DNA of 64,000 nt, from the NCBI GenBank assembly GCA_043786385.1, contig JAYVWC010000082.1, positions 8,208-72,207 of the forward strand, given 5' to 3'. Source of the DNA: Spongiibacteraceae bacterium. Lineage in GTDB: Bacteria; Pseudomonadota; Gammaproteobacteria; Pseudomonadales; CAMLJR01. The position numbers were made by a program, and so were the translations under genes. The notes below the pieces were generated by a model that saw nothing but the letters and a program-made list of their open reading frames with translations, was not told the DNA's origin and did not search any database. Shown here one piece after another: positions 16,601 to 35,621 of the stretch. Position 1 is the stretch's first letter. The number at the start of each line of letters is the position of its first letter.

Positions 16601-19600
16601 TCAGTCTGAGCGCACTCCAGTCGGTGTTGGTGCCGGCGCTCGGGCAGACGATCAACGATCTGCCGATCGCGGAATTGCGGATCGGCAAAGGCGCGTTGAT
16701 CGCCGCAGACCCCGGTGCTGCGCTGGCGTTTAACGCCGGCCAGCGCATCGTTTTCGACGGTCGCATCGAGGCGCCCGGCGGTAGCGTAACCATGACGATT
16801 TCGCCGGACCAGGACGATGTCCGGCGGGGCTCCAGCCAGGGTATCTGGCTGCTCGACGAGGCTGCGATTTCGGTCGCGGCCGCCTTTGTCCCGCAGCAGA
16901 ATGAGCTCGGCACACTCGATGGCCGATTATTCGATGCCGGTTCGATTATGCTCGATGCGCGCGGCGGCTATGTGGTCGGCCAGACCGGCTCGCTGCTCGA
17001 CGTAAGCGGCGCGGCCCAGACGATCGACCGCGTGCAGACCAGCCCGCTGTTCGGCACTCGCATCGATTCGATCGAGCACGCCCTTGCCGCCGGCGCGATC
17101 GATATTCGCGCCGAGCAGGGGATTTTCTTCGATAGCACGTTGCGCACCGAGCGCGCTGCACTCGCCAATGCCGAGGGCGCGTCACTGGCGTTGCGCCTGA
17201 ATGCCAACGCCAGCGGGCGCAACTCGCCCGGCGGCTTCGATCTGGCGCTGCAACTGGTCGATGTCGCGCCCACGGTGACGGTCGGACCGCTGGACGGCAT
17301 CGCTGCTGCAGATCGCGGGCGCGCGGTGATCGGCGCGCAAAAAATTAACGCAGCGCAACTCGATACGCTCACGCTCGAAGTGCAGAACTGGATGAGTGTG
17401 GGGCCTAATACTCTACAGGCCTCCGGACGCCTACAGGTGCTCGACAATGTGCAATTACGCGCACAAAAAAGTATCGCGCTCGCCACTACCAATCTCGATC
17501 TGCAAGGGCGCGATTTGCAGGTGCAAGCGCCGTTTCTGCAGCTTGGTTTAGCCAATGCTGATGCGCGTCTGCAGCAAAGCGATAGCGGCGCGTTGGCACA
17601 GCTAGGGCAAAGCACGGGTCTGTTGGCATTGCAGGGCAAGCTGATCGATCTGGTCGGCAATCTAGCGGTCGGCGGGGCGCGACTCTTGAACCTGCAGGCT
17701 TGCGACGATATCCGCGCTCGCTCGGTGGCATCGTCAAACCCCAGTCAAATTCTGGCGCCGGCCACGTTAACCACCGATGCCGATATTCTGCTGCAGGCGC
17801 GGCAACTGTACCCGACCAGCCTAGCCGACTACCGTTTCGACAACAGCGCCGGCGGCGCTGCCGCCAGCCTCCGTATCGTCGGAGCGCCGGGCGAACGGCA
17901 GCCGGTATTGTCGGCCGGCGGCAAGCTGGGTTTCACCACCGGAATTTTTCGCAATGAGGGTGCGATTATGGCACCGCTCGGGCAGATTGCCATCGACGCT
18001 TCGCAACAAGCAACGCTCGCCGGCGGCAGCCTAACCAGCGTCTCCGCAGATGGTCTGACGATTCCGCTCGGGCGGGTTCTTGGCGGCGATCTGGACTGGA
18101 TCTACCCGCTTAATGGCCAGGCCAGTCTGACGATGCTGGCGGAGAAACGCGTCGAAATCGACGCACCGGCAGTCGCCCTCGAACAGGGCGCCGCTATCGA
18201 TATTTCCGGCGGCGGTAAGGTGTACGCCACGGAATTTACCCCGGGGCCGGGCGGCTCGAAAGATGTGTTAGCGACGGAAAATGCCGGCGCCGCGTTTGCC
18301 ATTATGCCGGCACTGAGCAGCGGCATCGCCGCGTACGATGCGCTGGAGATGCACGGCGTAGATTTAACCGCGGGCAATATAGTCACCTTGCGCGGGGTAC
18401 CTGGCCTCGCCGATGGCAACTACACGGTATTGCCGGCGCGTTACGCATTGCTGCCGGGCGCCTATCTAGTTACGCCGCGCAGCGACAGCAGCTACCTTGC
18501 ACCCGGCCAGGTACTGCCGCGCTTCGATGGCTCGTGGTTGGTGGCCGGCAAAATGGGCGTGGCCGGCACCGCGATTACCGATTCGAACTGGAGCGGCTTT
18601 GTGGTCGCGCCGCGCAGCAGCGTGATAACGCGCAGCGAATACACCATTGCCGATGCCGATACCTATTTCGCCACTAAAAGCCTGACGCCGAAAGATGCGG
18701 GCGCGGTATTGGTATCCGCCACCGACAGTCTGGAATTGGCCGGCACGATTGCCTCCGGCAGCAGCACTGGCCTAGGTGGCCGACTCGATATCAGCGCCGA
18801 TCGGCTTGCAGTGGTAGCGCAGACCGGTACCGAGACAGGCTTCATCGAGCTGCTCGATAGCGCGTTGCAAGGGCTCGGCGTCGACAGCCTGCTGCTCGGC
18901 GGCCGCCGCAGCGTCGAAGGTACCGACATGGTCATCGAGACCACCGCGCAGACAGTAAAAATGGGTGCCGGTGCTTCGCTGAGCGGGCCCGAGATCATTC
19001 TGGCCGCCACCGATTCGGTAACTCTGGCGCGCGATTCCACCCTGGCCGGCACCGGCCGCAAAACCCAACAAGCGGAGGCGTTAAGTGTCGGGCGCGACGG
19101 CGCGCTGGTGCGCGTATCGTCGAGCAGGCAAACCGATTTTACGCGCACCGCTGCGACCGGTGCCACGCCGGGCGAATTGCAAATCGAGCAGGGCGCAACG
19201 CTGCGCGCCGATGCCGCGGTATTGCTCGATGCCAGCGGTTCGGCGGGTTTTGCCGGCAATCTCGATCTGCGCGGTGGCTCGCTGTCGCTGAATGCGGGTC
19301 GCATTGCACTCGGCGGGGATACCGCGATCGACGATGCCTTGCATTTTTCCGGCGCCACGCTGGCCGCGCTCGATATAGACGAGTTGCGTATCAATAGCCG
19401 CAGCACCATCGATTTCTACGGTGCTGTAGACATCGGTTTGCAACGGCTGGAGCTGGCGGGGCAGAGCTTTCGCAATCGCGCCGGAGCGGCGATCGATGTG
19501 TTGTTCAAAGTGGCCGCGCAGGCCACCGTAAAAGGTGTCGATAGTACGGCGAGTACGGCGGCGGGGGCGCCGGGTGGCACCTTCTCGATCGCTGCCGGCG

Positions 19601-22600
19601 AGTTGGTGCTAGGCGACGCTAAACAAACGGCGACGCTGGCTGTGGATAGCTTCGCGCAGACCAATCTGAGCGGTAGCGGACGCATCGTCGGGCGCGGCGA
19701 TCTCACATTAAACAGCGGTGGCGATCTGTCGCTGGATACACCGCTGCTGACCTTGGGCGGGGCGGGTAAGTTAACGGCCGATGCGGCCGGCATTATGACC
19801 GTTCGCAACAGCGCCGGCAGCGCACAGAATTCGGCGTTGGATTTTGCCGGCGCGCTGGCATTGAGCGGCGAACAAGTGATCATCGATACTCAATTGCGAG
19901 TGCCGGCGGGCCGCATCGATCTGATCGCGCGCACCGACGATGTCGAATTGCGCAGCGGCACACTACTCGATACCAGCGGCGTAACGCTGCGCTTCGGCGA
20001 AACTATAGTCGCCAGCGCCGACGGCGGTGTGGTGAATCTCAATGCGCAGCAGGGTGATGTGCGGACGGCGGTCGGTGCGCGCATCGATGTGTCCGCCACC
20101 AGTATCGGCAGTGCCGGTGCGCTGAATATTGCAGCTACGCAGGGTGCGGTGAATCTGCTCGGCAGTATCGATGCGGCGGCAGGGGCCGGCGGCAGCGGCG
20201 GCGCATTCGCACTCGATACACTGGCGCTCGACGATAGCTCGGCGCTGTTCGGGCTATTGCGTGCGGCCGGGTTTACCGAGTCGATCGATATTCGGCAGCG
20301 CAGCGGCGATCTAAATGTGGCGGCCGACGATAGCATCGATAGCGAGCGTGTACGGCTGCGCACCGATAACGGCAACTTGTCGATCGCGGGTGCCATTACC
20401 GCGCTCGGAGAAAAGGCCTCGGTGCTACTGGCGGCAGGTCAAAACCTGTTGCTCGACGCCAGCGCATCGTTGCGTATTGGCGCCGGCGGCGCCAATCACC
20501 GCGGCGAGCTAATGCTATCGGCATTGTCCGGGCAAATCGACGCGCGCACCGGTTCGAGTGTCGATCTGTCCGCCACCGATGCGGCAGCGGAAAATGGCCG
20601 TTTAACGTTGTTGACGACTCGCACCGCCAACGATGTGGCGATCACCAATTTTGACAGCAGCTTGCGCGGCGTCGGCCGCATCGATCTGGTGGCGAGCAAG
20701 GATTACTCGGCGTTGGGCGGCGACAGCGTATTGAACGCCGCTGATATGGCTGCGATCAATTCGGATACCGATAGTTATTTCACGGCTAACGAGGCGAGCA
20801 TAAAAAATCGTCTGACCAATCTCTCCGCAACTAGCGGCTTCCATTTGCAGGCGGGTGCCGTGGTAAAACCAGCGGGCGATCTGACGATTACCGGTCCGAT
20901 CGATTTATCCACCTATCGTTATGGAGTCAATAAAGAAGCCGGCCACTTGATGATTTCGGCAAGCGGCGATTTGACATTGAATGGCGAGCTGAGCGATGGC
21001 CTGGTGGCCGGTACGACTACTGCCGATACGGTGATTCGGGCGCAGAGCGGCGCTGTCGAATCCAAAATTGTGCAGACGGGCGAGTCCTGGTCGCTCAGTC
21101 TGGCGGCCGGCAGCGACAGCGCCAGCAGTTGGTACGGCGATACGGTAACCGGCGTCGGCGACGTCAGCCTAGCCGCCAATAGCCGCCTGCGCACCGGCAC
21201 CGGCGCTATCGAAATTTTTGCCGGCGACGATCTGGTACTGGCCGCCCAGACCTCGGTGATCTACACCGTCGGCCGCGCCGACTACGTTCTGAGCGAGGGT
21301 GCAACCTCGAGTGCGCCGCTGACGCTACAGCCGGACACCGGTGTGTTGTCACCGATCGACTTGTATCGCAATGTGTTGCCGAACCGTGTCGCCTATGCCG
21401 AGCAGGGTGGCGATATCAGTATCGACGTCGGTGGCGATATCGATGCGGCGAATTCGAATCAATTGTTTACGGACTGGTTGCAGCGCGCGCAGGGAACGTT
21501 GAATGACATCGTCTACAACACCTGGGCGGTGGCATCGGCGCGCTTCCAGCAAGGAGTCGCCACTCTGGGCGGCGGCAATATCGATGTTCACGCACGCGGC
21601 ACTATCAGCAATCTCTCGGTATCGACACCGACTACCGGTAAGCAGCTCGGCAGTCTGACGCAGCCACAATCGCTGGAACAGGCGATCGAGATCAACGGCG
21701 GCGGTGATATCGACGTGCGCGCCGGCGGTGACATCAACTCGCTACGCCTGCTGGTCGATCGCGGCACCGCACGGGTTAATGCCGAGGGCGATATCGGCGC
21801 CTGGCGCAGTGTCGATGGCTCCGCGGTTGGCTTCGAAACGCTGGTTGCGATCGGCGCTGCGGAAGCATCGTTCCGCGCCGGCGGCGATATCGCTTTCGCC
21901 GGCGCATTCAACCAAACGATGCTGGCGCAGAGCATATTGCAAAATAAAGGCTTAGCCGTTGCGGAGAACAGAAAAAGCTACTTTTTTACTTATAGCGAGC
22001 AAGCGGCATTAAACGCGCAGTCGCGCGGCGGCAATGTGTCTTTCGCGACCGAGGCAGACTCCACGGCGTTCGCCGCTGCGTTTCCGAATCTACAGCTGGC
22101 CAGTAACAGCGCCACCGCAAAATCGGCGTTGCAGATGTTGCCACCGGTGCTGAACCTGGAAGCTTTGCAAGGCGATATCGAGTTTGCCGACGATAGGCTG
22201 ACCCTGTATCCATCGGCGCGCGGCAATCTGCGTCTGGTCGCCGGCGGCGATATCGTCAACAGCGGAGCAAATCCGTTTACGCTACGTCAATCCGATGCGG
22301 ATCCTTCGCTGTTGCCGACGGCGCTGCGGCCGGTGGCGCGGTTGGGGACGTTGAGCGCTGCGTTGATCGACGATGTGTTCAGCAAACTGTTCAACCCGTT
22401 GCACGAAAATCTGCTAACCCACGCGGCGCAGCCGCTGCACGCCGGCGACGCTGCGCACTCGGTGATTGCGGCCGGCGGCGATATCGGCGCCGACGCCAGC
22501 GCGGGCAGTGCTGCGCTGACCTTCGAGCTGGCGCAGCAGACGCTGATCGACGCCGGCAACGATGTTGCCAACACGACGTTTTATCTACAGCACAATAATC

Positions 22601-24000
22601 TGGCCGATCACAGCCAAATCGGCGCCGGTCGCGATGTCAGTTATCGCTGCGAGAGCTGCAACGATCGCGGCGTTACCATCGCCGGCCCCGGCGTGCTCGA
22701 AGTATCCGCAGGCCGCGACATTGACCTCGGCGCTGCCGGCGGCATCGTGTCGATCGGCGATCGCGATAATCCGGCGTTATCATCCGAGGGCGCCGATATC
22801 CGCTTGTTGGCTGGCATCAATTCGGCGCCTGCCTATGCCGCTTTCGAGGCAAAATATTTACAGGCACCGGAGCAATTCCCGCAGCAGTTCGCGCATTTCC
22901 TATATTGGTCGGCACCCGATGCAGTGGTCTATGACCTGTTACAGACGCAAACCGGGCAGACCTACAACAATCGCGACGCCGCAATCGTAGCGCTACAACA
23001 ATTGCCGCGTAGCGCTGTATTGACGATGGCAAAACAGGCCTATGCGCAATCGTCGGCGCTGGTGCAGCGCGATCTGATAACCGCTGTTTATCTGCAGGAA
23101 ATACAGCGCGGCGGTGTCGAAGACGTGCAGGGTCAGCGAAGCGATGGCAACGGTTTCGCGCGCAGCTATGCGGTCATTGACACTTTGTTCCCCGGTGAGT
23201 TGTGGAAAGGCGATCTCAGCCTGGTGTTCAGCACGGTGCAGACGCAGCGCGGCGGCAATATCGATTTATTGATGCCGGGCGGCGGCATCGATGTGGGACT
23301 GGCGGGCACGTTCGCCGGCACTACCAAGGAGAGTGGTCAGCTCGGCATTATGGCGCAGTCGTTCGGCAGCGTGCGCGCTGTGGTCAAGAACGATATCAAC
23401 ATTAATGCCTCGCGGATATTTGCGCTCGATGCCGGCGATATTCTGCTGTGGTCGTCGGAGCAGGATGTCGACGCCGGCAAAGGCGCAAAAACCTCGCTGA
23501 CTATTCCGCCGCCGCGGCGGGTATTAAATCCCGACACCGGTCAATTCGAAACCGAGCTGCCGGCTGCGTTATCGGGCAGCGGCATTCAGTCTGGCGATAA
23601 CAAACTGACGTCGACTCCCGCGCGTTTTGCCAAATTGACGGTCGGCGCTGCCGATGCGCCGCTGCTGTTTGCGACTGTATCGGCCGCCGGCGCCAGCTAT
23701 TTGTTCGCACCGAAAGGAATAATCGATGCCGGGGATGCCGGTATTACTTCGCAGGGCGACTTATTTCTCGGCGCGCAGCAGGTGTTGGGTGCGGACAACA
23801 TCGATTTTGGGGGGGTTGCGATCGGTATTCCGGTTAGTAGCAATACCGGCGCGGCGCTCGCAGGCGTCGGCGATGTAGCCAACTCCGCAACGGAAAGCGC
23901 GACCAACTCGATGAACTCCGCATTGGCCGAAACCACCACTGCCCTTGCTGAAGGCAATGTCGCGTTTGTGACGGTGGACATATTGGGTGTGGGTAAATAA
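13699..24000 (+). CDS. Giant filamentous-haemagglutinin-family exoprotein (TpsA), 3433 aa
   Basis: The N-terminal TPS (haemagglutination activity) domain reads FNWESFNVGVGNEVVFKQPSASAVALNRIF...SAILGKISANGSIYLINRNGIVFG, where NRNG replaces the NPNG motif. A long Gly/Ala/Asp-rich beta-helix-type repeat body follows. The C-terminal conserved region is GNIDLLMPGGGIDVG...GDILLWSSEQDVDAGKGAKT. No VENN/CdiA-CT boundary was seen. Confidence 0.92.
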   Translation: MVMALLIKIRNSRGKIGAAWISCAAFTWSGLSLPAFAELPVPRANLSSGGGNYQVSSGGAVGTINQKSEREIFNWESFNVGVGNEVVFKQPSASAVALNRIFDNAPSAILGKISANGSIYLINRNGIVFGDGIHGGQVDVNGRFLATTLNINDTQFLNSNLFQAINNGEAALVGHTDDQGNALTSGAVKIDNGFTIKTGEGGDILIFAPEVMNKGNLLTPGGNAVLAASHDRVYLTANTAEETGSNLGGILVEVDTGGDVNNLGKIIAERGSVTLLGLAVNQNGLIRATTTVDNNGAIRLLARDKATHVTASQAEFAALGFDGPKELPANLARASRTGIVTIGAGSTTEVLPDAAVTKVADAQPQQLSLVDVMGSTVAIEGAATVRATGGEVRINATQYPATLQDIPGSQNASRMYIDTSALIDVSGTRDVELPMSRNVVEAELRGTELADAPLQRNGVLRGETVLVDARKGTKLANIEGYLALNERTVGERLAKGGTIKLRSEGDLIVNPGAKLDISGGSLRYQAGWLKTTKLLQNGKVVDISDADPDQPVDAILGKRSVTDARWGVAKEFGADSIFNMGTYVDSFTEGTAAGAITISASSTVFNGDIAAHASSGPYQRTPDKQVLAGSLSIDTRGIAQDVVFTPLQSKARLKLDDPIAVLDDSGQLQPPVLAIADGLVRDSGLRQLSVTTNGRVVQQADSRLELAAGNNSKLAVSASGVDIAGQIRVAGGTIDLKTKSTAFVKPIPDDDETNYVLAVRNGALLDVSGLWVNDNPLLTPDLTTPVVTNGGHIALGARGDVDIEAGSILNADAGAYRDSALSFRGGDGGTIELASYRLGGSALTLTGDYHAFGFGDSGKLAIEANGIYIGSDRPATLPATTLAFAPEFFATQGFGSYALTANLYDAEIEAGTTLRLQQRNFAPIGAGALASGDVVDTGYLGLLPSGSSLSLIATVETVAAATRKAADFSLSALQSVLVPALGQTINDLPIAELRIGKGALIAADPGAALAFNAGQRIVFDGRIEAPGGSVTMTISPDQDDVRRGSSQGIWLLDEAAISVAAAFVPQQNELGTLDGRLFDAGSIMLDARGGYVVGQTGSLLDVSGAAQTIDRVQTSPLFGTRIDSIEHALAAGAIDIRAEQGIFFDSTLRTERAALANAEGASLALRLNANASGRNSPGGFDLALQLVDVAPTVTVGPLDGIAAADRGRAVIGAQKINAAQLDTLTLEVQNWMSVGPNTLQASGRLQVLDNVQLRAQKSIALATTNLDLQGRDLQVQAPFLQLGLANADARLQQSDSGALAQLGQSTGLLALQGKLIDLVGNLAVGGARLLNLQACDDIRARSVASSNPSQILAPATLTTDADILLQARQLYPTSLADYRFDNSAGGAAASLRIVGAPGERQPVLSAGGKLGFTTGIFRNEGAIMAPLGQIAIDASQQATLAGGSLTSVSADGLTIPLGRVLGGDLDWIYPLNGQASLTMLAEKRVEIDAPAVALEQGAAIDISGGGKVYATEFTPGPGGSKDVLATENAGAAFAIMPALSSGIAAYDALEMHGVDLTAGNIVTLRGVPGLADGNYTVLPARYALLPGAYLVTPRSDSSYLAPGQVLPRFDGSWLVAGKMGVAGTAITDSNWSGFVVAPRSSVITRSEYTIADADTYFATKSLTPKDAGAVLVSATDSLELAGTIASGSSTGLGGRLDISADRLAVVAQTGTETGFIELLDSALQGLGVDSLLLGGRRSVEGTDMVIETTAQTVKMGAGASLSGPEIILAATDSVTLARDSTLAGTGRKTQQAEALSVGRDGALVRVSSSRQTDFTRTAATGATPGELQIEQGATLRADAAVLLDASGSAGFAGNLDLRGGSLSLNAGRIALGGDTAIDDALHFSGATLAALDIDELRINSRSTIDFYGAVDIGLQRLELAGQSFRNRAGAAIDVLFKVAAQATVKGVDSTASTAAGAPGGTFSIAAGELVLGDAKQTATLAVDSFAQTNLSGSGRIVGRGDLTLNSGGDLSLDTPLLTLGGAGKLTADAAGIMTVRNSAGSAQNSALDFAGALALSGEQVIIDTQLRVPAGRIDLIARTDDVELRSGTLLDTSGVTLRFGETIVASADGGVVNLNAQQGDVRTAVGARIDVSATSIGSAGALNIAATQGAVNLLGSIDAAAGAGGSGGAFALDTLALDDSSALFGLLRAAGFTESIDIRQRSGDLNVAADDSIDSERVRLRTDNGNLSIAGAITALGEKASVLLAAGQNLLLDASASLRIGAGGANHRGELMLSALSGQIDARTGSSVDLSATDAAAENGRLTLLTTRTANDVAITNFDSSLRGVGRIDLVASKDYSALGGDSVLNAADMAAINSDTDSYFTANEASIKNRLTNLSATSGFHLQAGAVVKPAGDLTITGPIDLSTYRYGVNKEAGHLMISASGDLTLNGELSDGLVAGTTTADTVIRAQSGAVESKIVQTGESWSLSLAAGSDSASSWYGDTVTGVGDVSLAANSRLRTGTGAIEIFAGDDLVLAAQTSVIYTVGRADYVLSEGATSSAPLTLQPDTGVLSPIDLYRNVLPNRVAYAEQGGDISIDVGGDIDAANSNQLFTDWLQRAQGTLNDIVYNTWAVASARFQQGVATLGGGNIDVHARGTISNLSVSTPTTGKQLGSLTQPQSLEQAIEINGGGDIDVRAGGDINSLRLLVDRGTARVNAEGDIGAWRSVDGSAVGFETLVAIGAAEASFRAGGDIAFAGAFNQTMLAQSILQNKGLAVAENRKSYFFTYSEQAALNAQSRGGNVSFATEADSTAFAAAFPNLQLASNSATAKSALQMLPPVLNLEALQGDIEFADDRLTLYPSARGNLRLVAGGDIVNSGANPFTLRQSDADPSLLPTALRPVARLGTLSAALIDDVFSKLFNPLHENLLTHAAQPLHAGDAAHSVIAAGGDIGADASAGSAALTFELAQQTLIDAGNDVANTTFYLQHNNLADHSQIGAGRDVSYRCESCNDRGVTIAGPGVLEVSAGRDIDLGAAGGIVSIGDRDNPALSSEGADIRLLAGINSAPAYAAFEAKYLQAPEQFPQQFAHFLYWSAPDAVVYDLLQTQTGQTYNNRDAAIVALQQLPRSAVLTMAKQAYAQSSALVQRDLITAVYLQEIQRGGVEDVQGQRSDGNGFARSYAVIDTLFPGELWKGDLSLVFSTVQTQRGGNIDLLMPGGGIDVGLAGTFAGTTKESGQLGIMAQSFGSVRAVVKNDININASRIFALDAGDILLWSSEQDVDAGKGAKTSLTIPPPRRVLNPDTGQFETELPAALSGSGIQSGDNKLTSTPARFAKLTVGAADAPLLFATVSAAGASYLFAPKGIIDAGDAGITSQGDLFLGAQQVLGADNIDFGGVAIGIPVSSNTGAALAGVGDVANSATESATNSMNSALAETTTALAEGNVAFVTVDILGVGK

Positions 24001-24072
24001 AGAGCCGGCGTGGGTAAATAAATTTTTGTAAACCGGTGACTTTTTACTGGTGGTTTCTTACAGGTGAGAAAG

Positions 24073-25881
24073 ATGCGCAAATTATTTTTTGTATTACTGC
24101 TGATGGTATCGAGTTTATCGCACGCGTGGTGGAACGATAAGTGGCCGAATCGATTGCCGATAACGGTCGATACCTCTGCTGCCGGTGCCGGGGTCAGCGA
24201 AAATAATAGCGATGTTACCGTGCTGGTGAAATTGCACGCCGGCAATTTTCAGGATTTCTTTTCTGTAAAAGAAGATTTATCCGATCTGCGTTTTATCGGC
24301 GACGATGATAAAACGCCGCTGAAATTTCACGTCGAAAATTTTGATTTGGTGAATCAACTGCTGTACGTGTGGGTGAAAGTGCCGCAGGTAGCTGGCGGCA
24401 TCAACACCGCTCGCCTGTGGATGTACTACGGCAATGCCGAGGTGCCTGGAGCCCAGGATAGTGGCGGCAGCTACGATAACAATACCGCGTTGGTGTACCA
24501 CTTTAACGCCGGTGAAAAAATTCCGCAGGATGCCGGCGTAAATGGCAATCACGCGACCTCGGCCAGCGCCTCAGTGATCGGCGCGGCGATTGCTTCGGGC
24601 TTGAAATTCGAGAGCGGTAATGTCGTATCGATCGACGATAAACCTACGCTGGCGGTGAAGGCCGCGCAGGGTGCGACGATCAGCTTTTGGCTGAAGCCTA
24701 CCAAACTGGAAGGTAATACCTGGTTGTTGCAGCGCAGCGGCGGCAACAGTGAGCTGGTTATCGGTCTCGAACAAAATAATTTGTACGCGCGTTTAAAGCT
24801 CGCGAATGGCCAATTGGTGGAAACCAATAAATCGCCGAGCGTTCGCGCGGATGCCTGGCAATTGGTCACCGCGATTATCGCGCCGAATAGATTGACGTTA
24901 CTCGTCGACGGTAAAGAAGTGGCGACAGCGGCCATTCAGTTGCAGGATTTCGGCGGCGCGATTACGTTGGGCGATGGTGCCCAAGGCGGTCATCCGTTTG
25001 TCGGCGAACTCGATGAGTTCCGGATCGATACGGTGGCGCGCAGCCCGAGCTGGGTGGCTTTGCAAATCAACAATCAAGGTATTCAAGACAAACTGTTGAG
25101 TGTACAAGAGGCCGAACAGTTAGGGTCTGGCGGTAAAGAATCTGGCTTCTGGTCAGTGATCATCGGCAGCCAGGATGAGGTTGGCTGGGCCATTCTAGGC
25201 GTGCTGATGATAATGGCCGTGATCAGTTGGATCGTGATGGGCGGCAAGGCGATTTATGTCGGTCGTGTACAAAAAGATAACAAGCACTTCCTCGATCAAT
25301 ACCGCGAGCTCGGCGATCAAGACCCGGCGCAGTTGGATCGCGACGATACCGCTGAAGATAAAGAGTTGGAAAAGTCGCCGATCACGCAAGCGCTGTTTGG
25401 TAATCATGATCACTTCCAAAGCTCGCCGATTTATCGTGTTTATCATCGCGCGGTGAAGGAAACGCAGGCGCGCTTGGGTAATTCGGTAGGCGCGCGGGCC
25501 AGCGGCTTATCCAATGCGGCAATCGCGTCGATTCGCGCGACGCTCGATACGCAAATGGTGTTTGAAATGCAGCGTCTCAATTCGCAGATGGTGTTGCTAA
25601 CGATCGCGGTTGCGGGCGGACCATTCATCGGTCTGTTCGGCACTGTGGTCGGCGTGATGATCGTATTCGCGGCGATTGCCGCTTCGGGGGATGTCAATAT
25701 CAACGCAATCGCTCCGGGTGTAGCGGCAGCGCTGGCGGCCACCGTGATGGGGCTGTTGGTCGCGATCCCAGCATTGTTTGGTTACAACTATTTAATGTCG
25801 AAAATAAAAGCGACGACCGCCGATATGCGTGTATTTGCCGATGAGTTTGTCACACGGCTTGCTGAATATTACGGGAAATAA
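24073..25881 (+). CDS. MotA/TolQ/ExbB proton-channel protein with an N-terminal periplasmic DUF2341 + LamG-like (concanavalin-type) extension
   Basis: Signal peptide MRKLFFVLLLMVSSLSHA, then WWNDKWPNRLPITVDTS (DUF2341-type). A LamG-like stretch follows (ISFWLKPTKLEGNTWLLQRSG...LLVDGKEV...FVGELDEFRIDTVARS). TM helices and the ExbB core are GGPFIGLFGTVVGVMIVFAAIA...AAALAATVMGLLVAIPALFGYNYL. The ATG at 24073 was preferred over the GTG at 24064. Confidence 0.85.
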   Translation: MRKLFFVLLLMVSSLSHAWWNDKWPNRLPITVDTSAAGAGVSENNSDVTVLVKLHAGNFQDFFSVKEDLSDLRFIGDDDKTPLKFHVENFDLVNQLLYVWVKVPQVAGGINTARLWMYYGNAEVPGAQDSGGSYDNNTALVYHFNAGEKIPQDAGVNGNHATSASASVIGAAIASGLKFESGNVVSIDDKPTLAVKAAQGATISFWLKPTKLEGNTWLLQRSGGNSELVIGLEQNNLYARLKLANGQLVETNKSPSVRADAWQLVTAIIAPNRLTLLVDGKEVATAAIQLQDFGGAITLGDGAQGGHPFVGELDEFRIDTVARSPSWVALQINNQGIQDKLLSVQEAEQLGSGGKESGFWSVIIGSQDEVGWAILGVLMIMAVISWIVMGGKAIYVGRVQKDNKHFLDQYRELGDQDPAQLDRDDTAEDKELEKSPITQALFGNHDHFQSSPIYRVYHRAVKETQARLGNSVGARASGLSNAAIASIRATLDTQMVFEMQRLNSQMVLLTIAVAGGPFIGLFGTVVGVMIVFAAIAASGDVNINAIAPGVAAALAATVMGLLVAIPALFGYNYLMSKIKATTADMRVFADEFVTRLAEYYGK

Positions 25882-25886
25882 ACCTA

Positions 25887-26291
25887 ATGAACGTATCCGA
25901 CGACGACAAGGTTTTTGATGACATCAACGTAACGCCGATGCTCGATTTGGCGTATGTATTGTTAATCATTTTTATTATTTTAACGACGGCAACGGTGCAG
26001 GGCATCAAAGTCAATCTACCGAAAGCGAGCAACGCGCCGAGCTTAAACAAACCGCAGACGAAGGCGGTTACGGTTACGCCGGACGGCACCATTTATCTCG
26101 ATGCGTATCCGGTCAGTCTCGATCAGTTGGAATCGCTGCTGCGGCAATACAAAGCAGTTAACCCCGATTTACCGGTGGTGGTGAAAGCTGATTCGCAGGT
26201 GCAGTACCAGCGGGTCGTCGATGTACTGGATGTATTGGGGCGCGTCGAAATCACCCAGCTCGGTTTGGTGACGCAGAAGGCAGCGAAGTGA
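25887..26291 (+). CDS. exbD: ExbD/TolR family biopolymer transport protein
   Basis: 134 aa with INVTPMLDLAYVLLIIFIILT and a periplasmic domain (VVVKADSQVQYQRVVDVLDVLG). The gap from the exbB-like gene is 5 nt. Confidence 0.9.
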   Translation: MNVSDDDKVFDDINVTPMLDLAYVLLIIFIILTTATVQGIKVNLPKASNAPSLNKPQTKAVTVTPDGTIYLDAYPVSLDQLESLLRQYKAVNPDLPVVVKADSQVQYQRVVDVLDVLGRVEITQLGLVTQKAAK

Positions 26292-26428: not shown

Positions 26429-27055
26429 ATGTCGAAAAAATGGTTAAAAAGGCTGCCTGCTGCGCTGATCGTTTTGGTGATCGTGGTGGCAATTGTCGGC
26501 GTTGTGTACTTAAAAAATCACTTTCATAAGGACGAGACGCAAAAGAAAAAAATGGTGCAGCAGATCACGATGCTGAAGCTGCCGCCACCACCTCCGCCAC
26601 CGCCTCCGCAAGAGCAGATCAAGGAGCCGGAGATAAAGGATGAGCCGATTAAAGAAGAGACCGAAGCGCCGCCCGCTGAGTCTGCTGAAGATAGCCCTGC
26701 ACCAGAGGCAGCCGAAGGCGCAGGAGTTGGCAACGATGGTTTCGGTCTGGGAAAAAATACCGGACGCGGTTGGGGTGCCGGCACCGGCGGCGCTTACGAG
26801 CAGCATGTGCGCCAAGAAATCAACGAATTTATTTTGGGAAACGAGCGGCTAAAACACATGGATTACATCGCCGTGCTGACGTTAAAAATCGGCGAGAGTG
26901 GCGAATTTGAGCAGTACGACGTCGAAATTGTTAGCGGCGATAAAGTGGCCGCCGAGTTGATTCGTAAAATATTGGCCGATAAACGAAAACTGGCAAAGCC
27001 GCGCCCGTTAGAAGCGGCGAGCGTGGTGAAGTTAAGAATTAAATCGGTTTTATAA
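26429..27055 (+). CDS. TonB-like energy transducer (N-terminal TM anchor, Pro-rich spacer, C-terminal domain)
   Basis: TM segment LPAALIVLVIVVAIVGVVYL. Spacer LPPPPPPPPPQEQIKEPEIKDEPIKEE. A ~90-aa C-terminal globular domain follows. The gene sits directly after exbB/exbD homologues. Confidence 0.7.
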   Translation: MSKKWLKRLPAALIVLVIVVAIVGVVYLKNHFHKDETQKKKMVQQITMLKLPPPPPPPPPQEQIKEPEIKDEPIKEETEAPPAESAEDSPAPEAAEGAGVGNDGFGLGKNTGRGWGAGTGGAYEQHVRQEINEFILGNERLKHMDYIAVLTLKIGESGEFEQYDVEIVSGDKVAAELIRKILADKRKLAKPRPLEAASVVKLRIKSVL

Positions 27056-27070: not shown

Positions 27071-28735
27071 ATGAGAAAAACGATGAATTATCGATTGAGA
27101 AAAGCCATGCTGGTCGCCTTATTAGGAGTTACATCGATTGCGCATGGAGAAAACGCGGCATTGGGCGATGTCACTGCGCAAGATTTGCTGAAATTACTGG
27201 TCGACGAAGGCGTGATCGACAAAAATAAATTAAAAGCGTTAACCGAAAAAATTCAAGAGCGCAAAAAAACAGCGGCTGGGGCGGCGGTCGATAGCGTTGC
27301 AGAGACACAGCGCGATGTGAAGCCCGCTGCCGAGGGTCAAGTGATCCGCGTGCCGTACGTGCCGGCATATATCAAAGATGAAATTCGCGATGAGGTGCGC
27401 ATCGGTTTGAAAGAGGATGTGTCGCGCGATGTATTGGCGCAGGCCAAACAAGAGCGCTGGGGATTGCCGGGCGCACTGCCGGAGTGGATCGACACAATTC
27501 AATTCTACGGCGATGCCCGACTGCGTTATCAGGGCGATATGTTCGCGGAGGGCAACAGCGAAAGTCTATACCTCGACATCAATGAAGTGAATGCCGTCGG
27601 TGATATCGATAAATTAACCGATTCTGCATTTATCAATACTACCGAGGATCGCGAGCGGATGCGCGTGCGGATGCGGCTCGGGATGAAGGCAAAAATCAGC
27701 AATTCGGTCGAGGCCGGTTTGCGTTTAGTCACCGGCAATGGCAACGATCCAGTGAGCACCAATCAAACGTTGGGCAACTACGGTGAGAAGTATCAATCAA
27801 CATTCGATCTCGCGTATCTAAGCTATAAAAATCAGACGCGCAGTGTGCAGCTCGCGGGTGGCAGAATCAAAAATCCATTTTTCAGCACCGATTTAGTGTG
27901 GGACAACGATCTGACCTTCGAAGGCGTCGCGGGCAGTTGGCATTGGCTGCGCAGCGACGGTATGGACGAGCAGTTCCGGCAGGCCGACCCCTACATTACG
28001 GTGGGCGTTTTTCCGCTTGGCGAGGTGGAGAAATCCAGCGACGACAAATGGCTTTACGCTGCGCAGTTCGGCTTGGATTACGCATTTACGGATCAATCTA
28101 AACTTGAGCTGGGCGCGGCGTATTATCACTACGCCAATGTGGCCGGTGTTAGGAACGAACCGAATAGCAATCTTACCGATTACACCGCGCCCGATTACCT
28201 GCAGAAAGGCAATAGCCTGTTCAATATCCGCAACGATTTGGCCAATACCAGTCTTGTGTTGCTAGGGTTGTTGCCGGATTACCATCTCGCCAACGTCACG
28301 GCCGGCTACGATTTGGCGACGCTGGCGCCGCATCACATATTTTTGACTGCGGATTACGTCAAAAATATCGGCTTCGATCAGGATGAAATCGTTGCGCGGC
28401 GCGGCTCGCCAATCGATGAAGAAATCACCGGTTGGATGGTGCGCGCAGCTGTGGGCTGGCCGGTGGTGGCGCAGCGCGGCAATTGGCTGGCTGCGTTATC
28501 GTATCGTTATCTGGAACGCGATGCGGTGCTGGATGCCTTTACCGATTCGGACTTCCATCTCGGCGGTACCGATGCTAAAGGTTACGTGCTCGAGTTTCAA
28601 TACGGTCTCGACGAGGATATTTGGTTAACCACGAAATGGATGAGTTCCGACGAGATCGAGGGCGATCTGATCGGCGGCGGCGGGGGGCCGTTCGGCATCG
28701 ACACTCTGCAGCTCGATATCAATGCGAAATTTTAA
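27071..28735 (+). CDS. Porin-like outer-membrane beta-barrel protein (putative porin family)
   Basis: Signal peptide MLVALLGVTSIAHG. The N-terminal helical segment is DLLKLLVDEGVIDKNKLKALTEKIQERKK. A long region of alternating aromatic and Gly beta-strand pattern follows. The C-terminus is LQLDINAKF (terminal Phe). Confidence 0.6.
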   Translation: MRKTMNYRLRKAMLVALLGVTSIAHGENAALGDVTAQDLLKLLVDEGVIDKNKLKALTEKIQERKKTAAGAAVDSVAETQRDVKPAAEGQVIRVPYVPAYIKDEIRDEVRIGLKEDVSRDVLAQAKQERWGLPGALPEWIDTIQFYGDARLRYQGDMFAEGNSESLYLDINEVNAVGDIDKLTDSAFINTTEDRERMRVRMRLGMKAKISNSVEAGLRLVTGNGNDPVSTNQTLGNYGEKYQSTFDLAYLSYKNQTRSVQLAGGRIKNPFFSTDLVWDNDLTFEGVAGSWHWLRSDGMDEQFRQADPYITVGVFPLGEVEKSSDDKWLYAAQFGLDYAFTDQSKLELGAAYYHYANVAGVRNEPNSNLTDYTAPDYLQKGNSLFNIRNDLANTSLVLLGLLPDYHLANVTAGYDLATLAPHHIFLTADYVKNIGFDQDEIVARRGSPIDEEITGWMVRAAVGWPVVAQRGNWLAALSYRYLERDAVLDAFTDSDFHLGGTDAKGYVLEFQYGLDEDIWLTTKWMSSDEIEGDLIGGGGGPFGIDTLQLDINAKF

Positions 28736-28745
28736 GGGGTCGCGC

Positions 28746-29414
28746 ATGTTGAGCAAACATCGTTATAAAGGCTTCTCGATCGCATGGTTGTTGGCCAATT
28801 TGCTCGCTGTGAATGGTTTTGCGATAAACAACGCAGCCGCGCAGGATACCAATGCCAATGCACAAAAAAATGCGTTGGCGAAAGCGCAATATATGCTGCG
28901 TCAGGCGACTAGCGAAAAATCTGAAGCACAACAGCAAGCCGAGACGCTAAAGAAACAGATCGATACGCTGACTAAGGAGTTGGCCACGGTGAAATCCGCC
29001 GCTAGCGAAAATAAGCAAAAAATGGAAGAGAAATTCAGCGGTACCATCGAGCAATGGAAACAGCACGATGAAAAGGCCGGTGGTCAATTGACGACGTTAC
29101 GTACGCAATTGAAGGAGCAAACCCAGCTTCGTGCGCAGCTGGAGGAAAAACTTAAAATTCAAACCGATAATTTTTCAATGTGCTACGGCAATAATAAACA
29201 ATTGCTCGATGTTAATCGCGAGTTGCTCGATCGCTATCAGCACAAGGGCGTGCTCGATGCGGTCAGTCAGAAGGAGCCGTTCACCGGTCTTAAAGAAGTC
29301 GAAATAGAAAATCTGGTGCAGGATTATCGCTATCGGATCGATGATTTAAGTGTTGCTGCACCTGCTGCGGAAAAGGTTCCGGTTGCCGGTCAGCAATCGC
29401 CAGCAGTTGAGTAG
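28746..29414 (+). CDS. Secreted coiled-coil protein
   Basis: ATG at 28746 follows an AAGGGG Shine-Dalgarno. Signal sequence FSIAWLLANLLAVNGFA. It has heptad-like Q/E/K-rich stretches (QQQAETLKKQIDTLTKELATVKSAASENKQKMEEKF...LRTQLKEQTQLRAQLEEKLK). Confidence 0.6.
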   Translation: MLSKHRYKGFSIAWLLANLLAVNGFAINNAAAQDTNANAQKNALAKAQYMLRQATSEKSEAQQQAETLKKQIDTLTKELATVKSAASENKQKMEEKFSGTIEQWKQHDEKAGGQLTTLRTQLKEQTQLRAQLEEKLKIQTDNFSMCYGNNKQLLDVNRELLDRYQHKGVLDAVSQKEPFTGLKEVEIENLVQDYRYRIDDLSVAAPAAEKVPVAGQQSPAVE

Positions 29415-29493: not shown

Positions 29494-30009
29494 ATGGCGA
29501 TCAAGAAAAATATTTCGGTGCGGTTGGGTGTCGCGGATCTGCGGCGCGTTAAGGAAATTGCATTGCGGCTCGACGTCAAAGAGTCGGAAATTTTTCGTTA
29601 CGCCGTCAAAGCGTTATCGACGCGGTTGATGCCGCTGTTAAATCGCCAATTGAGTGGAGTGCCGATGTTAGTTGCACTGCTCGAAAGCGGCGAGGAGATG
29701 CTCGGCTATTTTGAATTCGATGTACCACATTTGGAGCGTTTGATAAATGGCAGTATCGATCACCTCGCCGTGGTCGAGCACGAGGATATCGAAATGTTGG
29801 CGATCGGTATTATCAATCCCGATTATTTGGCGGCGCGCATTTCTGAAAAATTAAATGCCAGTATCGAGCCTGCGCTGGCGTTCGATGCATTGCAAAATTA
29901 TCTATTCCGTAAATATCAAGTGCGCGCGTATGCGGCGGTGGTCGGTAGCGCAGCCGATAACAGCAGCGATGGTATTAGCAGCATGAGCATGCAGGCCGTG
30001 CCGGCCTGA
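29494..30009 (+). CDS. Hypothetical protein (weak ribbon-helix-helix-like N-terminus)
   Basis: 171-aa ORF preceded by AAGGGGTGAG. The N-terminus is KKNISVRLGVADLRRVKEIALRLDVKESEIFRYAVK. No family was recognised. Confidence 0.45.
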   Translation: MAIKKNISVRLGVADLRRVKEIALRLDVKESEIFRYAVKALSTRLMPLLNRQLSGVPMLVALLESGEEMLGYFEFDVPHLERLINGSIDHLAVVEHEDIEMLAIGIINPDYLAARISEKLNASIEPALAFDALQNYLFRKYQVRAYAAVVGSAADNSSDGISSMSMQAVPA

Positions 30010-31838: not shown

Positions 31839-32564
31839 ATGCAACGAATCGTGGTGCTCAATCCAAAAGGCGGCTCCGGCAAGACCATGCTGGCCACCAA
31901 TCTTGCCAGTTATTTCGCGAAACGCGGCGATAAAACAGTGCTGATGGATTACGACAGCCAAGGTTCGAGCACTTATTGGGTGGGGCAGCGTTCAGTCCAG
32001 CACGCGCCGGTGCAGGTGATCTCGGCGTATAAACAGCCGCTCGGTGTCACTCGTAGCTGGTTTTTACGGGTGCCGCCGCAGACTAAAACGTTAATCATCG
32101 ATACCCCCGCAGCGCTTGATTTCGGCACACAGCAACGTCTGTTGCAAGAAGCTTCGGCGATCGTTATCCCGGTGCTGCCGGCCGATGGCGATATTCATGC
32201 GGCGTCGAATTGCATTGCTGATTTATTGACTGCGACAAAAATTCGGCGCGAGGATGGGCGCATTGCGGTGGTCGCCAATCGCGTGCGCAAAAATACTTTG
32301 GCGTACCAACGCCTGGTGTATTTTCTGAACTCGCTGCGCATTCCCTTTCTGACCACGCTGCGCGATACGCAGAACTACATCAACGCAGCGGCGCAGGGGC
32401 TTGGTATCTGCGATATGCCCGAGCAGCAGGTGCAAGAGGATTTTGATGCGTGGTTGCCGCTGTTCAACTGGTTGGCGCGACGCGAGTCGAGCGAACTGCA
32501 TCTGCAGCAACTCGGCGGGCCTGTACAGGCGGCCACCTTGCAACAGAATCGTTTTAATTTCTAA
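31839..32564 (+). CDS. Orphan ParA/MinD-family ATPase
   Basis: It has the deviant Walker A NPKGGSGKTMLATNLA and YDSQGSS. No parB or plasmid context is present. Confidence 0.8.
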   Translation: MQRIVVLNPKGGSGKTMLATNLASYFAKRGDKTVLMDYDSQGSSTYWVGQRSVQHAPVQVISAYKQPLGVTRSWFLRVPPQTKTLIIDTPAALDFGTQQRLLQEASAIVIPVLPADGDIHAASNCIADLLTATKIRREDGRIAVVANRVRKNTLAYQRLVYFLNSLRIPFLTTLRDTQNYINAAAQGLGICDMPEQQVQEDFDAWLPLFNWLARRESSELHLQQLGGPVQAATLQQNRFNF

Positions 32565-33862
32565 ACCTCGACCAACGCCGCAACCTCGACCATGCCGTGC
32601 GTCAATAATTTTAAATCGTCGGCATTTATAATGAACGGCGGCATCGCGTAAATAAATTTCCCGAACGGCCGCACCCATAAACCGCGTTGAATAAATAAAT
32701 CTTGAATCGCCGCGACGTTAATCGTCTCGCGCATTTCGATAATGCCGATCGCGCCGAGTATGCGCACATCGGCGACCTGCGCTAATTGGCGCGCTGGCTC
32801 CAAACCCTCTCGCAATTGCGTTTCAATCGTTTGTACTTGGCGCTGCCACGGTTGCGAAATTAATAGCTCGATACTCGCGCACGCGATCGCGCAAGCTAAC
32901 GCATTGCCCATAAATGTAGGGCCGTGCATCAGCGCACCGGCGCCGCCGCTGCAAATGCCATCGCTGACGCGCGTGGTACACAGCGTCGCGGCTAAACTCA
33001 AATAGCCGCCGGTGAGCGCTTTACCCAAACACATAATATCGGGGCTGATGCCGGCGTGCTCGCACGCAAATAATTTACCGGTGCGCCCAAAGCCAGTGGC
33101 GATTTCATCGCAGATCAACAAGACATCGTAGCGGTCGCACAGTGCGCGCACGTGCTGCAAATACGCTGGCGCGTATAAATGCATGCCGCCGGCTGCTTGT
33201 AAAATCGGTTCGAGAATAACCGCAGCAATTTCGTCGCTATGGTGTTCAAGCAATGCGCGTAGCGATTCGATATGTTGTTCGACAAAATTTTCATCGAAGC
33301 ACGGGCTGGGTTTATCGGCAAAAAAATGTTGTGGCAATACGCTGCTAAACAATTGATGCATACCTTCGACCGGATCGCACACCGACATCGCCATAAACGT
33401 ATCGCCGTGATAACCGCCGCGCACGGTCAGCAATTTTTGTTTTTGGTTGTTGCCTTGTGCGCGCCAAAATTGCAGCGCCATTTTTATTGCGATCTCGACA
33501 GCTACCGAACCTGAATCGCTAAAAAAAACTTTCGTCAACGGTGTCGGCGTGAAATTCACCAGCAGCTTGCCGAGTTTGATCGCAGCCGGATGCGTAAGGC
33601 CGCCGAACATCACATTCGACATCGCGGCTAATTGTTGCTGTGCCGCCGCGTTCAATAGCGGATGGTTGTAGCCGTGAATCGCACTCCACCACGAGCTGGT
33701 GCCATCGATCAAATCGCGACCATCGGCTAATTGCAAACGCACGCCGTGCGCGGCCACCACCGGATACACCGGCGCTGTATTTGGCAGCGCTGCGTAGGGG
33801 TGCCAAATATGTTCGCGATCAAGCTGTAGCAGCTGCGCGATGGAATTGGAATCGAGCGACAT
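32561..33862 (-). CDS. bioA: Adenosylmethionine-8-amino-7-oxononanoate aminotransferase
   Basis: Class-III aminotransferase with HIWHPYA, FFSDSGSVAVE, DEIATGFGRTGKLFA and PPFII. The start was trimmed to the Met at 33862 (MSLDSNS). Confidence 0.9.
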   Translation of the reverse strand: MSLDSNSIAQLLQLDREHIWHPYAALPNTAPVYPVVAAHGVRLQLADGRDLIDGTSSWWSAIHGYNHPLLNAAAQQQLAAMSNVMFGGLTHPAAIKLGKLLVNFTPTPLTKVFFSDSGSVAVEIAIKMALQFWRAQGNNQKQKLLTVRGGYHGDTFMAMSVCDPVEGMHQLFSSVLPQHFFADKPSPCFDENFVEQHIESLRALLEHHSDEIAAVILEPILQAAGGMHLYAPAYLQHVRALCDRYDVLLICDEIATGFGRTGKLFACEHAGISPDIMCLGKALTGGYLSLAATLCTTRVSDGICSGGAGALMHGPTFMGNALACAIACASIELLISQPWQRQVQTIETQLREGLEPARQLAQVADVRILGAIGIIEMRETINVAAIQDLFIQRGLWVRPFGKFIYAMPPFIINADDLKLLTHGMVEVAALVEV

Positions 33863-34043
33863 AGTTTGATTGCCTGGTAGCGGGGTGAAAGTAAAATCGA
33901 AATCGGCACGCGCCATTATCGCAGATTTCGTGAAGGGCATTATTGCTCAAAATTAGGATGGCGAAATCGACGGAAAAGTTATCCGTATCGACTACAATTA
34001 GCGGCCAAACGGCAGCGATAAACGACGAGGGAGATGAGTTGCG

Positions 34044-35057: not shown

Positions 35058-35078
35058 GTGGATTAGGAGTGCACGGAT

Positions 35079-35621
35079 ATGCGCGTTAGGCTGGTAGTTT
35101 CGTTTTTATTTTTATTCTCTAGCTTAGTTCAAGGTGCTGGCTTCGATTGCGCGAAAGCCGCTACGGCAATTGAAAAGCTTGTGTGCAAAAATCCTGAATT
35201 ATTAGAATTGGATAGTCAATTAGCCGTTTCATATAAGAATGCATTAGCTGCGGCAAAGGATGTCGCTTTACTTAAAGACCTGCAGCTAACGTGGTTGCGT
35301 AATGTTCGCAATATGTGTTTAGACACTAGCTGTTTGGAAATTGAATATCGCTTAAGAATTATACAGTTGGCCTCCGCATCCGAATGGATGACTGATGAGA
35401 AGGAGCAGTCTATATGCAAAGATGTGGTCGATGCGATTAATGAGGGTTCTATTATAAATCGATTTGAGAAATTTGTTCCTGCGAGTAAAGAAGACCAAAA
35501 CTTATTTTTAGAGAAGAAAAAATCCTCTTCTAGCTTTTATTACATGAGTCAAACTTTAAATATAACCTCAAAGCTAGGAGGCACTAGGTTTAGTTCATGG
35601 CACCGGCACTTGTGGCGATGA
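35079..35621 (+). CDS. Secreted DUF1311 (LprI-like) domain protein; possibly the 5' part of a frameshifted longer gene
   Basis: Signal peptide VVSFLFLFSSLVQGA. It has the DUF1311-type pattern FDCAKAATAIEKLVCKNPELLELDSQL...Y...LQLTWLRNVRNMC. The region is visibly AT-richer than its flanks. Confidence 0.6.
   Translation: MRVRLVVSFLFLFSSLVQGAGFDCAKAATAIEKLVCKNPELLELDSQLAVSYKNALAAAKDVALLKDLQLTWLRNVRNMCLDTSCLEIEYRLRIIQLASASEWMTDEKEQSICKDVVDAINEGSIINRFEKFVPASKEDQNLFLEKKKSSSSFYYMSQTLNITSKLGGTRFSSWHRHLWR

Follow-up and report, generated by a model that had tools for sequence, protein, structure and literature searches.

The window analyzed here is the whole stretch of 64,000 nucleotides from a Spongiibacteraceae bacterium (assembly GCA_043786385.1, contig JAYVWC010000082.1, positions 8,208 to 72,207 of the forward strand), and the gene of interest is at 24073-25881 on its + strand, where the listing of open reading frames (ORFs) and the translation give a single ORF encoding 602 amino acids (aa). 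We call the product the long ExbB. It has a DUF2341-LamG cassette ahead of a core of the TolQ/ExbB type, and its gene stands in a cluster with genes for a two-partner secretion (TPS) pair, an ExbD, a TonB-like protein, a Porin_5 outer-membrane protein, and a secreted coiled-coil protein. That the long ExbB is the proton-channel (A) subunit of a Ton/Tol-type motor, the counterpart of Pseudomonas aeruginosa ExbB2, and a member of this module is very nearly certain in our judgment. What is new here is the linkage of the long ExbB to ExbD, the TonB-like protein, Porin_5, and the coiled-coil protein. The parts of the protein are laid out as follows, with the kind of evidence for each.

24073-25881, + strand: DUF2341-LamG-ExbB/TolQ protein, 602 aa (ORF, Pfam); very probable counterpart of P. 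aeruginosa ExbB2
24073-24126, + strand: predicted signal peptide, aa 1-18 (MRKLFFVLLLMVSSLSHA), with cleavage predicted before W19 (sequence features)
24127-24492, + strand: DUF2341 beta-sandwich region, aa 19-140, including the WWNxxWxxR cassette start (Pfam, model, conservation)
24568-25107, + strand: LamG/concanavalin-like jelly-roll, aa 166-345 (Pfam, model, Foldseek)
25108-25176, + strand: flexible Gly/Ser-rich linker, aa 346-368, joining the periplasmic part, a putative crown, to the first transmembrane (TM) helix, TM1 (model, conservation)
25177-25878, + strand: TolQ/ExbB core, with TM1 at about 371-393, cytoplasmic helices at 394-504, TM2-TM3 at 505-572, and a C-terminal helix (Pfam, Foldseek)

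An in-frame GTG is present upstream at 24064, and ATG 24073 is the likely start because homologues begin with the same MRK and a Shine-Dalgarno-like motif, GGTGAG, lies 5-10 nt 5' of it. The N-terminus, MRKLFFVLLLMVSSLSHA followed by WW, looks like a Sec-type signal peptide. A18, W19, and W20 are invariant in an alignment of 31 homologues, and the AlphaFold model has a low predicted local distance difference test (pLDDT) score at aa 14-17. The GC content of the gene is 0.53, versus 0.54 for the window. An earlier note on this DNA, made by reading the sequence, had put the periplasmic extension at about 380 aa; an extension is indeed there, but its length comes down to about 350 aa once the signal peptide is cleaved.

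DUF2341 and LamG together make up the cassette, aa 19-345. Pfam places DUF2341 at aa 68-133 (E = 1.2e-12, 48.5 bits against a cut-off of 23.4) and Laminin_G_3 at aa 183-329 (E = 1.8e-18, 67.5 bits against a cut-off of 27.6). The AlphaFold model, with a mean pLDDT of 81, consists of two beta domains, a linker, and a helical core. It scores about 90 across aa 26-345, with 80-92 in the DUF2341 strands at aa 26-119 and 91-96 in the LamG region; the linker is disordered, with pLDDT <50 at aa 352-366. Foldseek against the Protein Data Bank (PDB) aligns the periplasmic beta region with the lectin-like jelly roll of the clostridial neurotoxin Hc (E = 6e-9, ~220-245 aligned columns), and a profile search of solved structures matches the cassette to an arabinanase accessory domain, so that the jelly-roll fold of the LamG/concanavalin-A-like lectin domains is recognized both by sequence profile and by structure comparison.

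The cassette is also found in proteins of another kind. Searching with aa 19-350 against 1.84 billion cluster representatives gives 463 proteins at E <= 1e-30 and 4061 at E <= 1e-10. Besides ExbB fusions of ~600 aa, the top matches are giant proteins (P0361-P0509) of 1.3-7.8 thousand aa with 2-24 matched stretches, in which Pfam finds DUF2341 and Laminin_G_3 alternating and no motor domain; one of them is from Candidatus Parcubacteria (P0369 = RJQ13687.1). Their repeat unit of ~320 aa extends from WWNxxWxxR at its start to GxxDExRxS..RS..W at its end. The 'WWNDKWPNR' start of the window protein lies outside the Pfam DUF2341 match, and we count it as part of the repeat unit because every repeat of a giant DUF2341 protein opens with it. 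The likeness to tandem surface proteins such as RJQ13687.1 is thus in a ~320-aa unit with the same ends, at 26-31% identity, and the difference is that they carry 2-24 copies and no membrane motor domain, whereas the window protein has one copy fused to an ExbB core. The tandem occurrence in the giant proteins leads us to view the DUF2341-LamG unit as a reusable extracytoplasmic cassette.

The earlier note took the lectin fold to suggest that the motor is tethered to a periplasmic ligand such as glycan, peptidoglycan, or the exoprotein, which is one option among several. One explanation of this kind is that the cassette is a true lectin, anchoring the ExbB pentamer to peptidoglycan or another periplasmic glycan and so either fixing the ring of A subunits or positioning the motor beneath its outer-membrane partner. 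In its favor are the ConA/LamG-like fold itself, nearest solved relatives that are receptor- or carbohydrate-binding (neurotoxin Hc, the arabinanase accessory domain), and the repeated use of the same cassette in giant cell-surface proteins. However, when family conservation is compared with the giant-protein repeats, no ExbB-specific conserved ligand-site signature is found in the cassette. The invariant cassette residues are common to the giant-protein repeats and therefore mark the cassette fold in general rather than a motor-specific ligand site. Mean pairwise identity in the ExbB family is 51% for DUF2341, the most conserved periplasmic part, 34% for LamG, 32% for the linker, 36% for the cytoplasmic loop, and 81% for TM2-TM3, and in our comparison of domains the LamG half is the least conserved region of the protein. 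It is also established that ExbD-type subunits already make the peptidoglycan contact in known motors. An anchoring lectin is, on balance, quite unlikely.

The C-terminal part matches Pfam MotA_ExbB (PF01618) at aa 479-585 (E = 4.6e-26, 91.5 bits against a cut-off of 22.9). By hydropathy, the TM segments are at ~371-393, 505-530, and 545-570, with the N-terminus outside. Foldseek superimposes the core on the TolQ structures 8vlw, 9kpz, and 9ddm with a TM-score of ~0.8 normalized to the target, and it matches ExbB chains too. The motifs GLFGTVxG and APGxAxALxAT...IPA align to TolQ 8vlw, and T524, T557, and P566 are conserved at >=95% among 88 members. Although the core sequence is nearer to TolQ than to ExbB, it falls below the equivalog cut-offs of both tolQ TIGR02796 (131.1 vs 221 bits) and exbB TIGR02797 (64.8 vs 206.2 bits), and among the window proteins there is no TolA, TolB, or Pal encoded adjacent to it. 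Membership in the MotA/TolQ/ExbB family is indicated by the profile score, by the three TM helices with their TM2/TM3 motifs, and by an adjacent ExbD with the TM Asp. With Escherichia coli and Acinetobacter baumannii TolQ and E. coli ExbB, the protein shares the three TM helices, the channel motifs, a helical cytoplasmic domain, and the pairing with an ExbD/TolR partner bearing the TM Asp. The canonical subunits have 220-244 aa, whereas the window protein has 368 extra N-terminal residues, and its partners, unlike theirs, are neither TolA/TolB/Pal nor a plugged TonB-dependent transporter (TBDT).

The anatomy read from the letters by the earlier note, with a signal peptide, DUF2341 plus a LamG fold, three TM helices, and an ExbB core in one gene, therefore agrees with Pfam, hydropathy, AlphaFold, and Foldseek. 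The domain calls that it proposed as a check return DUF2341, Laminin_G_3, and MotA_ExbB, all well above their cut-offs, and the structure prediction that it also proposed returns the two beta domains and a helical, TolQ-like core. A further concern was that the 602-aa ORF might be a frameshift or assembly fusion of a DUF2341/LamG protein with an ordinary ExbB. To this we give practically no credence, since more than 100 full-length homologues are known, coming from isolates, plasmids, and metagenome-assembled genomes (MAGs), and since cassette and core are in a single ORF in 78 of 80 species-genome loci (the remaining two, L033 and L052, being split MAG assemblies) and in 37/37 metagenome loci. 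The gene is a single one, as the earlier note had it, and the fusion artifact is ruled out.

The family is large. A protein search gives 505 matches, of which more than 100 are full-length (598-640 aa) with all three Pfam domains, and a genome scan using the N-terminal cassette profile alone confirms at least 577 stretches. The taxa among the matches listed are Gamma-, Beta-, and Alphaproteobacteria, Nitrospirota, Desulfobacterota, Geobacteraceae, and Verrucomicrobiota; the nearest named homologues are from Spongiibacteraceae MAGs. Twelve full-length homologues are encoded on plasmids or on secondary replicons, in Klebsiella, Burkholderia, Cupriavidus, Variovorax, and Methylomagnum among others. 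At NCBI these proteins carry the name 'DUF2341 domain-containing protein' or 'MotA/TolQ/ExbB proton channel family protein', and the Pfam entry for DUF2341 mentions MotA/TolQ/ExbB proteins. A 2025 study of MotAB relatives counts DUF2341 as an uncharacterised domain appended at the N-terminus of non-flagellar A subunits, and our search of the literature turned up no work on the function of exbB2/tonB4, PA0696, or a DUF2341 appendage. The architecture, which the earlier note presented as unusual, is thus widespread and already catalogued; the window protein is an ordinary member of that family, and finding it is no discovery in itself.

What the family members have around them is more informative, and for this the genes next to the long ExbB in the window are needed.

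12020-13687, + strand: TpsB, a ShlB/FhaC-type transporter in the outer membrane (Pfam ShlB and POTRA_2)
13699-24000, + strand: TpsA exoprotein, 3433 aa, with an N-terminal TPS domain and a C-terminal DUF3739 (Pfam)
25887-26291, + strand: ExbD, 134 aa, beginning 5 nt past the ExbB stop (Pfam ExbD, E = 1.9e-29)
26429-27055, + strand: TonB-like protein, 208 aa, in the position of tonB4/PA0695 (Pfam DUF5775, weak TonB_2)
27083-28735, + strand: Porin_5 outer-membrane protein (Pfam Porin_5, E = 5e-164)
28722-29414, + strand: secreted coiled-coil protein, start codon uncertain, in the position of PA0697

ExbD has the TM Asp, D20, in INVTPMLD (motif INVTPxxD), as aligned to Serratia marcescens ExbD 7ajq_F. 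The TonB-like protein opens with an N-terminal TM helix, continues with a poly-Pro/Glu/Lys spacer, and closes with a small C-terminal domain; its homologues are annotated 'energy transducer TonB', and a PDB sequence search with it gives no meaningful match. The coiled-coil protein is homologous, weakly but consistently, to the protein that Klebsiella has at the PA0697 position, and its profile matches are to SMC-like coiled-coil only. Its conserved C-terminal region contains one Cys.

Porin_5 is modeled by AlphaFold (pLDDT 77) as a 16-strand barrel with no plug, preceded by ~115 periplasmic residues that form two short helices, then a low-confidence segment, then a long helix at 95-124. Inside the low-confidence segment is VRVPY(V/I)P, the best-conserved N-terminal motif, at 80-90% identity in 70 sequences (window ~27150-27500), which from its sequence could be a candidate analogue of a TonB box. 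A PDB sequence search with Porin_5 finds no relative. By structure, Foldseek finds OmpM1 of Veillonella, a stalked 'attachment porin', as the best match (E = 2e-16), followed by DcaP, AlgE, and general porins. Pfam gives no Plug or TonB_dep_Rec match in Porin_5, and the 22-strand barrel with plug and TonB box is not what the model has, so that, judged by the model, Porin_5 is no classical TBDT. OmpM1 and DcaP (Acinetobacter) likewise have a 16-strand barrel with a helical extension in the periplasm ahead of it. In OmpM1 the stalk terminates in an SLH domain that binds peptidoglycan, whereas the Porin_5 stalk has the VRVPY(V/I)P motif and short helices, and Porin_5, unlike OmpM1 and DcaP, is genetically tied to a Ton-type motor.

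Linkage was examined from both ends. The 80 species-genome loci with a long ExbB were searched by phmmer with the window and Klebsiella proteins as queries, and, reciprocally, 80 metagenome loci were fetched with the Porin_5 profile, 39 of which had >=3.1 kb upstream; counts with a smaller denominator take only the loci having enough flanking sequence. ExbD is found in 78/80 long-ExbB loci and a TonB-like protein in 75/80. Porin_5 is present in 65 of the 68 with enough downstream sequence, and the coiled-coil protein in 60/63. Starting from Porin_5, an ExbB core is found in 37 of the 39 metagenome loci, with the cassette fused to it in all 37, and no short ExbB is seen beside Porin_5 in those 39; the coiled-coil gene follows Porin_5 in 59/64 metagenome loci. 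The coiled-coil protein is present without a nearby Porin_5 in three loci (L004, L026, L031). By these counts in both directions, the long ExbB has its firmest partners in ExbD, the TonB-like protein, Porin_5, and the coiled-coil protein, the last being linked to it as tightly as Porin_5 is. The window protein has the marks of the DUF2341-LamG-ExbB family as a whole: the three-domain architecture is collinear, and the neighborhood has ExbD, TonB-like, Porin_5, and PA0697-like proteins, usually with TpsA/TpsB.

The TPS genes behave differently. They are within 10 kb in 53/64 loci, and TpsA, which in the window ends 72 nt ahead of the long ExbB, is immediately upstream of it in 50/80. Yet the cassette is retained with no TPS gene within 10 kb in 11/64 loci, a count taken at the locus itself. 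The smallest arrangement is on a Methylomagnum ishizawai plasmid (L004, 11602-22300), which has only long ExbB-ExbD-TonB-coiled-coil, with no TPS and no Porin_5 within ~11.6 kb upstream and 16 kb downstream. This minimal module has PhoX and another alkaline phosphatase within 10 kb. TPS is, at the level of the locus, frequent yet dispensable, and the 11/64 loci disfavor TpsA as an obligatory partner.

These counts bear on an explanation in which the cassette binds a periplasmic part of TpsA, for example the C-terminal DUF3739, so that the motor holds, pulls, or releases the exoprotein and a type Vb system would be driven by energy. The frequent placement of a TpsA with DUF3739 directly upstream, the TPS genes nearby in most loci, a modest distance correlation between LamG and the TpsA C-terminus (partial rho 0.29), and reports in the literature that some TpsA C-termini remain periplasmic all fit with it. 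But the loci that keep the cassette with no TPS nearby, the Methylomagnum plasmid among them, do not, Porin_5 and the coiled-coil protein are linked more tightly to the long ExbB than TPS is, and TPS secretion is regarded in the literature as energy-independent. We think binding of TpsA by the cassette improbable.

That homologues of TPS, exbBD, and PA0696 genes occur together in other genera was already noted in 2009, and the best-described cluster of this kind is in P. aeruginosa. The P. aeruginosa members have 608-615 aa with DUF2341, Laminin_G_3, and MotA_ExbB, and one cluster alone holds 904 sequences. P0182 from this species aligns with the window protein at 37% identity over aa 5-602 (E = 7e-110), and the alignments are collinear across the junction of cassette and core. 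The order at the P0182 locus is TpsA (4181 aa, TPS and DUF3739)-DUF772-TpsB-long ExbB-ExbD-TonB_2-Porin_5, continuing with a 220-aa protein-YbjN-PPIase-141-aa protein-LysR-AraC. It agrees with the published order, pdtA-phdA-pdtB-exbB2-exbD2-tonB4-PA0696-...-PA0701a (PA0690-PA0701a), a regulon of PhoB and sigma-VreI, and the cluster is induced by phosphate starvation. We equate P0182 with PA0693 (ExbB2) by synteny and the published gene descriptions rather than by a PAO1 sequence. The window and the P. aeruginosa exbB2 cluster have in common the architecture of the long ExbB and the neighbors TpsA with DUF3739, TpsB, ExbD, TonB-like, Porin_5, and a ~220-aa protein. They differ in that the window has tpsB-tpsA where P. 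aeruginosa has tpsA-tpsB, and in that the window has no phdA-like gene between the tps genes and no YbjN/PPIase/LysR after the cluster.

Regulation may also differ from that in P. aeruginosa. PUMA3-type sigma/anti-sigma genes are absent from the window and are found in 1/80 loci. A Pho-box scan of the window (CTGTCATNNNNCTGTCAT, <=3 mismatches) gives one match, with 2.9 expected by chance; TTGTCATCACTTTGTTAA, between exbD and tonB, had been picked out by eye as a possible Pho box and was dropped with 4 mismatches. A complete PUMA3-like cluster is found on the conjugative IncFIB plasmid pKqq_SB98_1 of Klebsiella quasipneumoniae (L003, 1-24400), with an extracytoplasmic function (ECF) sigma, anti-sigma, TpsA, TpsB, long ExbB, ExbD, TonB, porin, YbjN, peptidyl-prolyl isomerase (PPIase), and LysR, and it lies beside insertion sequence (IS) elements and an ars operon. 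Since such a cluster is on a conjugative plasmid, the whole module is horizontally mobile.

The remaining features around the cluster in the window are the following.

9989-11650, + strand: PstS-like secreted protein, 553 aa (weak PstS/PBP_like_2 match)
11716-11737, + strand: terminator-like hairpin 5' of tpsB (9-bp stem, 6 GC pairs, T-run)
29494-30009, + strand: 171-aa ORF at the cluster end, with homologues in 19/80 loci (E = 1e-17 to 1e-35)
29992-30008, + strand: terminator-like hairpin at the end of the 171-aa ORF (7-bp stem, 6 GC pairs, T-run)

From their sequence, the hairpins at 11716-11737 and 29992-30008, the two strongest, are probably the 5' and 3' borders of a transcription unit; a promoter/terminator scan of the region as a whole gives a number of sites not above chance. 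A weak hairpin at 24032-24051 (+ strand, 8 pairs, 3 of them GC) lies inside the 72 nt that separate the tpsA stop from the start of the long ExbB and might attenuate read-through from the 10-kb tpsA gene. The PstS-like gene, set apart from the cluster by the first of these hairpins, echoes the phosphate-starvation context of P. aeruginosa and has homologues in 5/80 related loci. The 171-aa ORF has no Pfam or NCBIfam match, and its N-terminus resembles, by eye, a ribbon-helix-helix DNA-binding motif. As a homologue of YbjN (PA0698), which holds this position in Pseudomonas and Klebsiella, it was rejected by comparison. Polysaccharide-related genes follow the module at 31839-36384 of the window (a ParA/CbiA-like ATPase and an NAD-dependent epimerase/dehydratase), and in a genome unrelated to that of the window, Poly_export and Polysacc_synt are 3' of the module (L002, 16679-21830). 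The remaining window genes are housekeeping genes.

How the cassette might serve the motor is the main point of interest. Solved ExbB/TolQ complexes have 5:2 stoichiometry, on which basis five ExbB subunits around an ExbD dimer would place five cassettes (~5 x 36 kDa, ~180 kDa) in the periplasm as a crown. We propose that this crown would be a protein-docking scaffold rather than a lectin for free sugars, and that it would keep one or more of three things at the motor, namely the TonB-like protein's C-terminal domain, the stalk of the porin, and the coiled-coil protein. Proton-driven movement could then be passed on to the stalked porin, opening or remodeling it, with TpsA serving at the surface for capture or adhesion and the porin as an energized conduit, by analogy with HxuA/HxuB/HxuC. 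The crown as a docking scaffold is a tentative proposal, one that we are inclined to doubt somewhat more than to believe.

The one characterised precedent, at smaller scale, is in S. marcescens, where a periplasmic extension of ExbB binds the C-terminal domain of HasB, a dedicated TonB paralogue, and affects Has function (Biou et al. 2022); the crown would take over, at larger scale, the role of this short extension towards HasB. In the Serratia long ExbB (6YE4/7AJQ), a signal peptide and a periplasmic extension at the N-terminus likewise come before the pentameric core. That extension, however, is ~50 aa (few to 150 in the family), Ala/Pro-rich, and unstructured, whereas the one here is 350 aa, folded, and two-domain, and the core here, unlike that of the Serratia protein, is closer to TolQ than to ExbB. 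With an extension of this length and fold, and with no has genes in the vicinity, the window protein does not belong to the Serratia type of 'long ExbB'. The Haemophilus influenzae hxuCBA locus also encodes a TPS pair together with an energized outer-membrane protein, and there the exoprotein captures the nutrient source and the outer-membrane protein imports. HxuC is a plugged TBDT on the housekeeping Ton system, whereas the window cluster has a plug-less Porin_5 and its own crowned motor, if the crown is as proposed.

Several points weigh against this proposal. LamG and ConA-like folds often bind carbohydrates. Porin_5 is without a plug or a recognized TonB box, so a classical Ton mechanism is not simply transferable to it. 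The TonB-like protein scores 20.7 bits for TonB_2, below the cut-off of 22, and its TM helix is, by eye, without the Ser/His motif of E. coli TonB/TolA. Co-variation of distance matrices (mirror-tree) gives a partial rho of ~0.3 and favors no single partner, the correlations with the C-domain of the TonB-like protein, with the coiled-coil protein, with the barrel of the porin, and with the C-terminus of TpsA being alike. The window has neither a Pho box nor a PUMA3 regulator, and therefore the link to phosphate starvation may not hold here. Finally, P. aeruginosa transposon mutants of tonB4 and PA0696 were without a phenotype in the one assay reported for them.

Taking the identity and module membership of the long ExbB together with the docking crown, we regard this as the best overall explanation, though as a blend it is nearly in balance, with doubt slightly ahead. 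A bolder version would have the motor, with its five-fold lectin-fold crown, grip the porin stalk, possibly also a TpsA tail, directly, making it a distinct proton-driven trans-envelope machine. This we consider rather unlikely; if true, type Vb secretion or a porin would be supplied with energy, something at present credited to neither. The family is nonetheless large, with thousands of Porin_5 clusters, and includes the phosphate-starvation virulence regulon of P. aeruginosa. It would represent a third kind of Ton/Tol-like motor, and its tight genetic coupling to a plug-less, stalked porin and, usually, to a TPS pair offers a concrete starting point for tests in an organism amenable to genetics.

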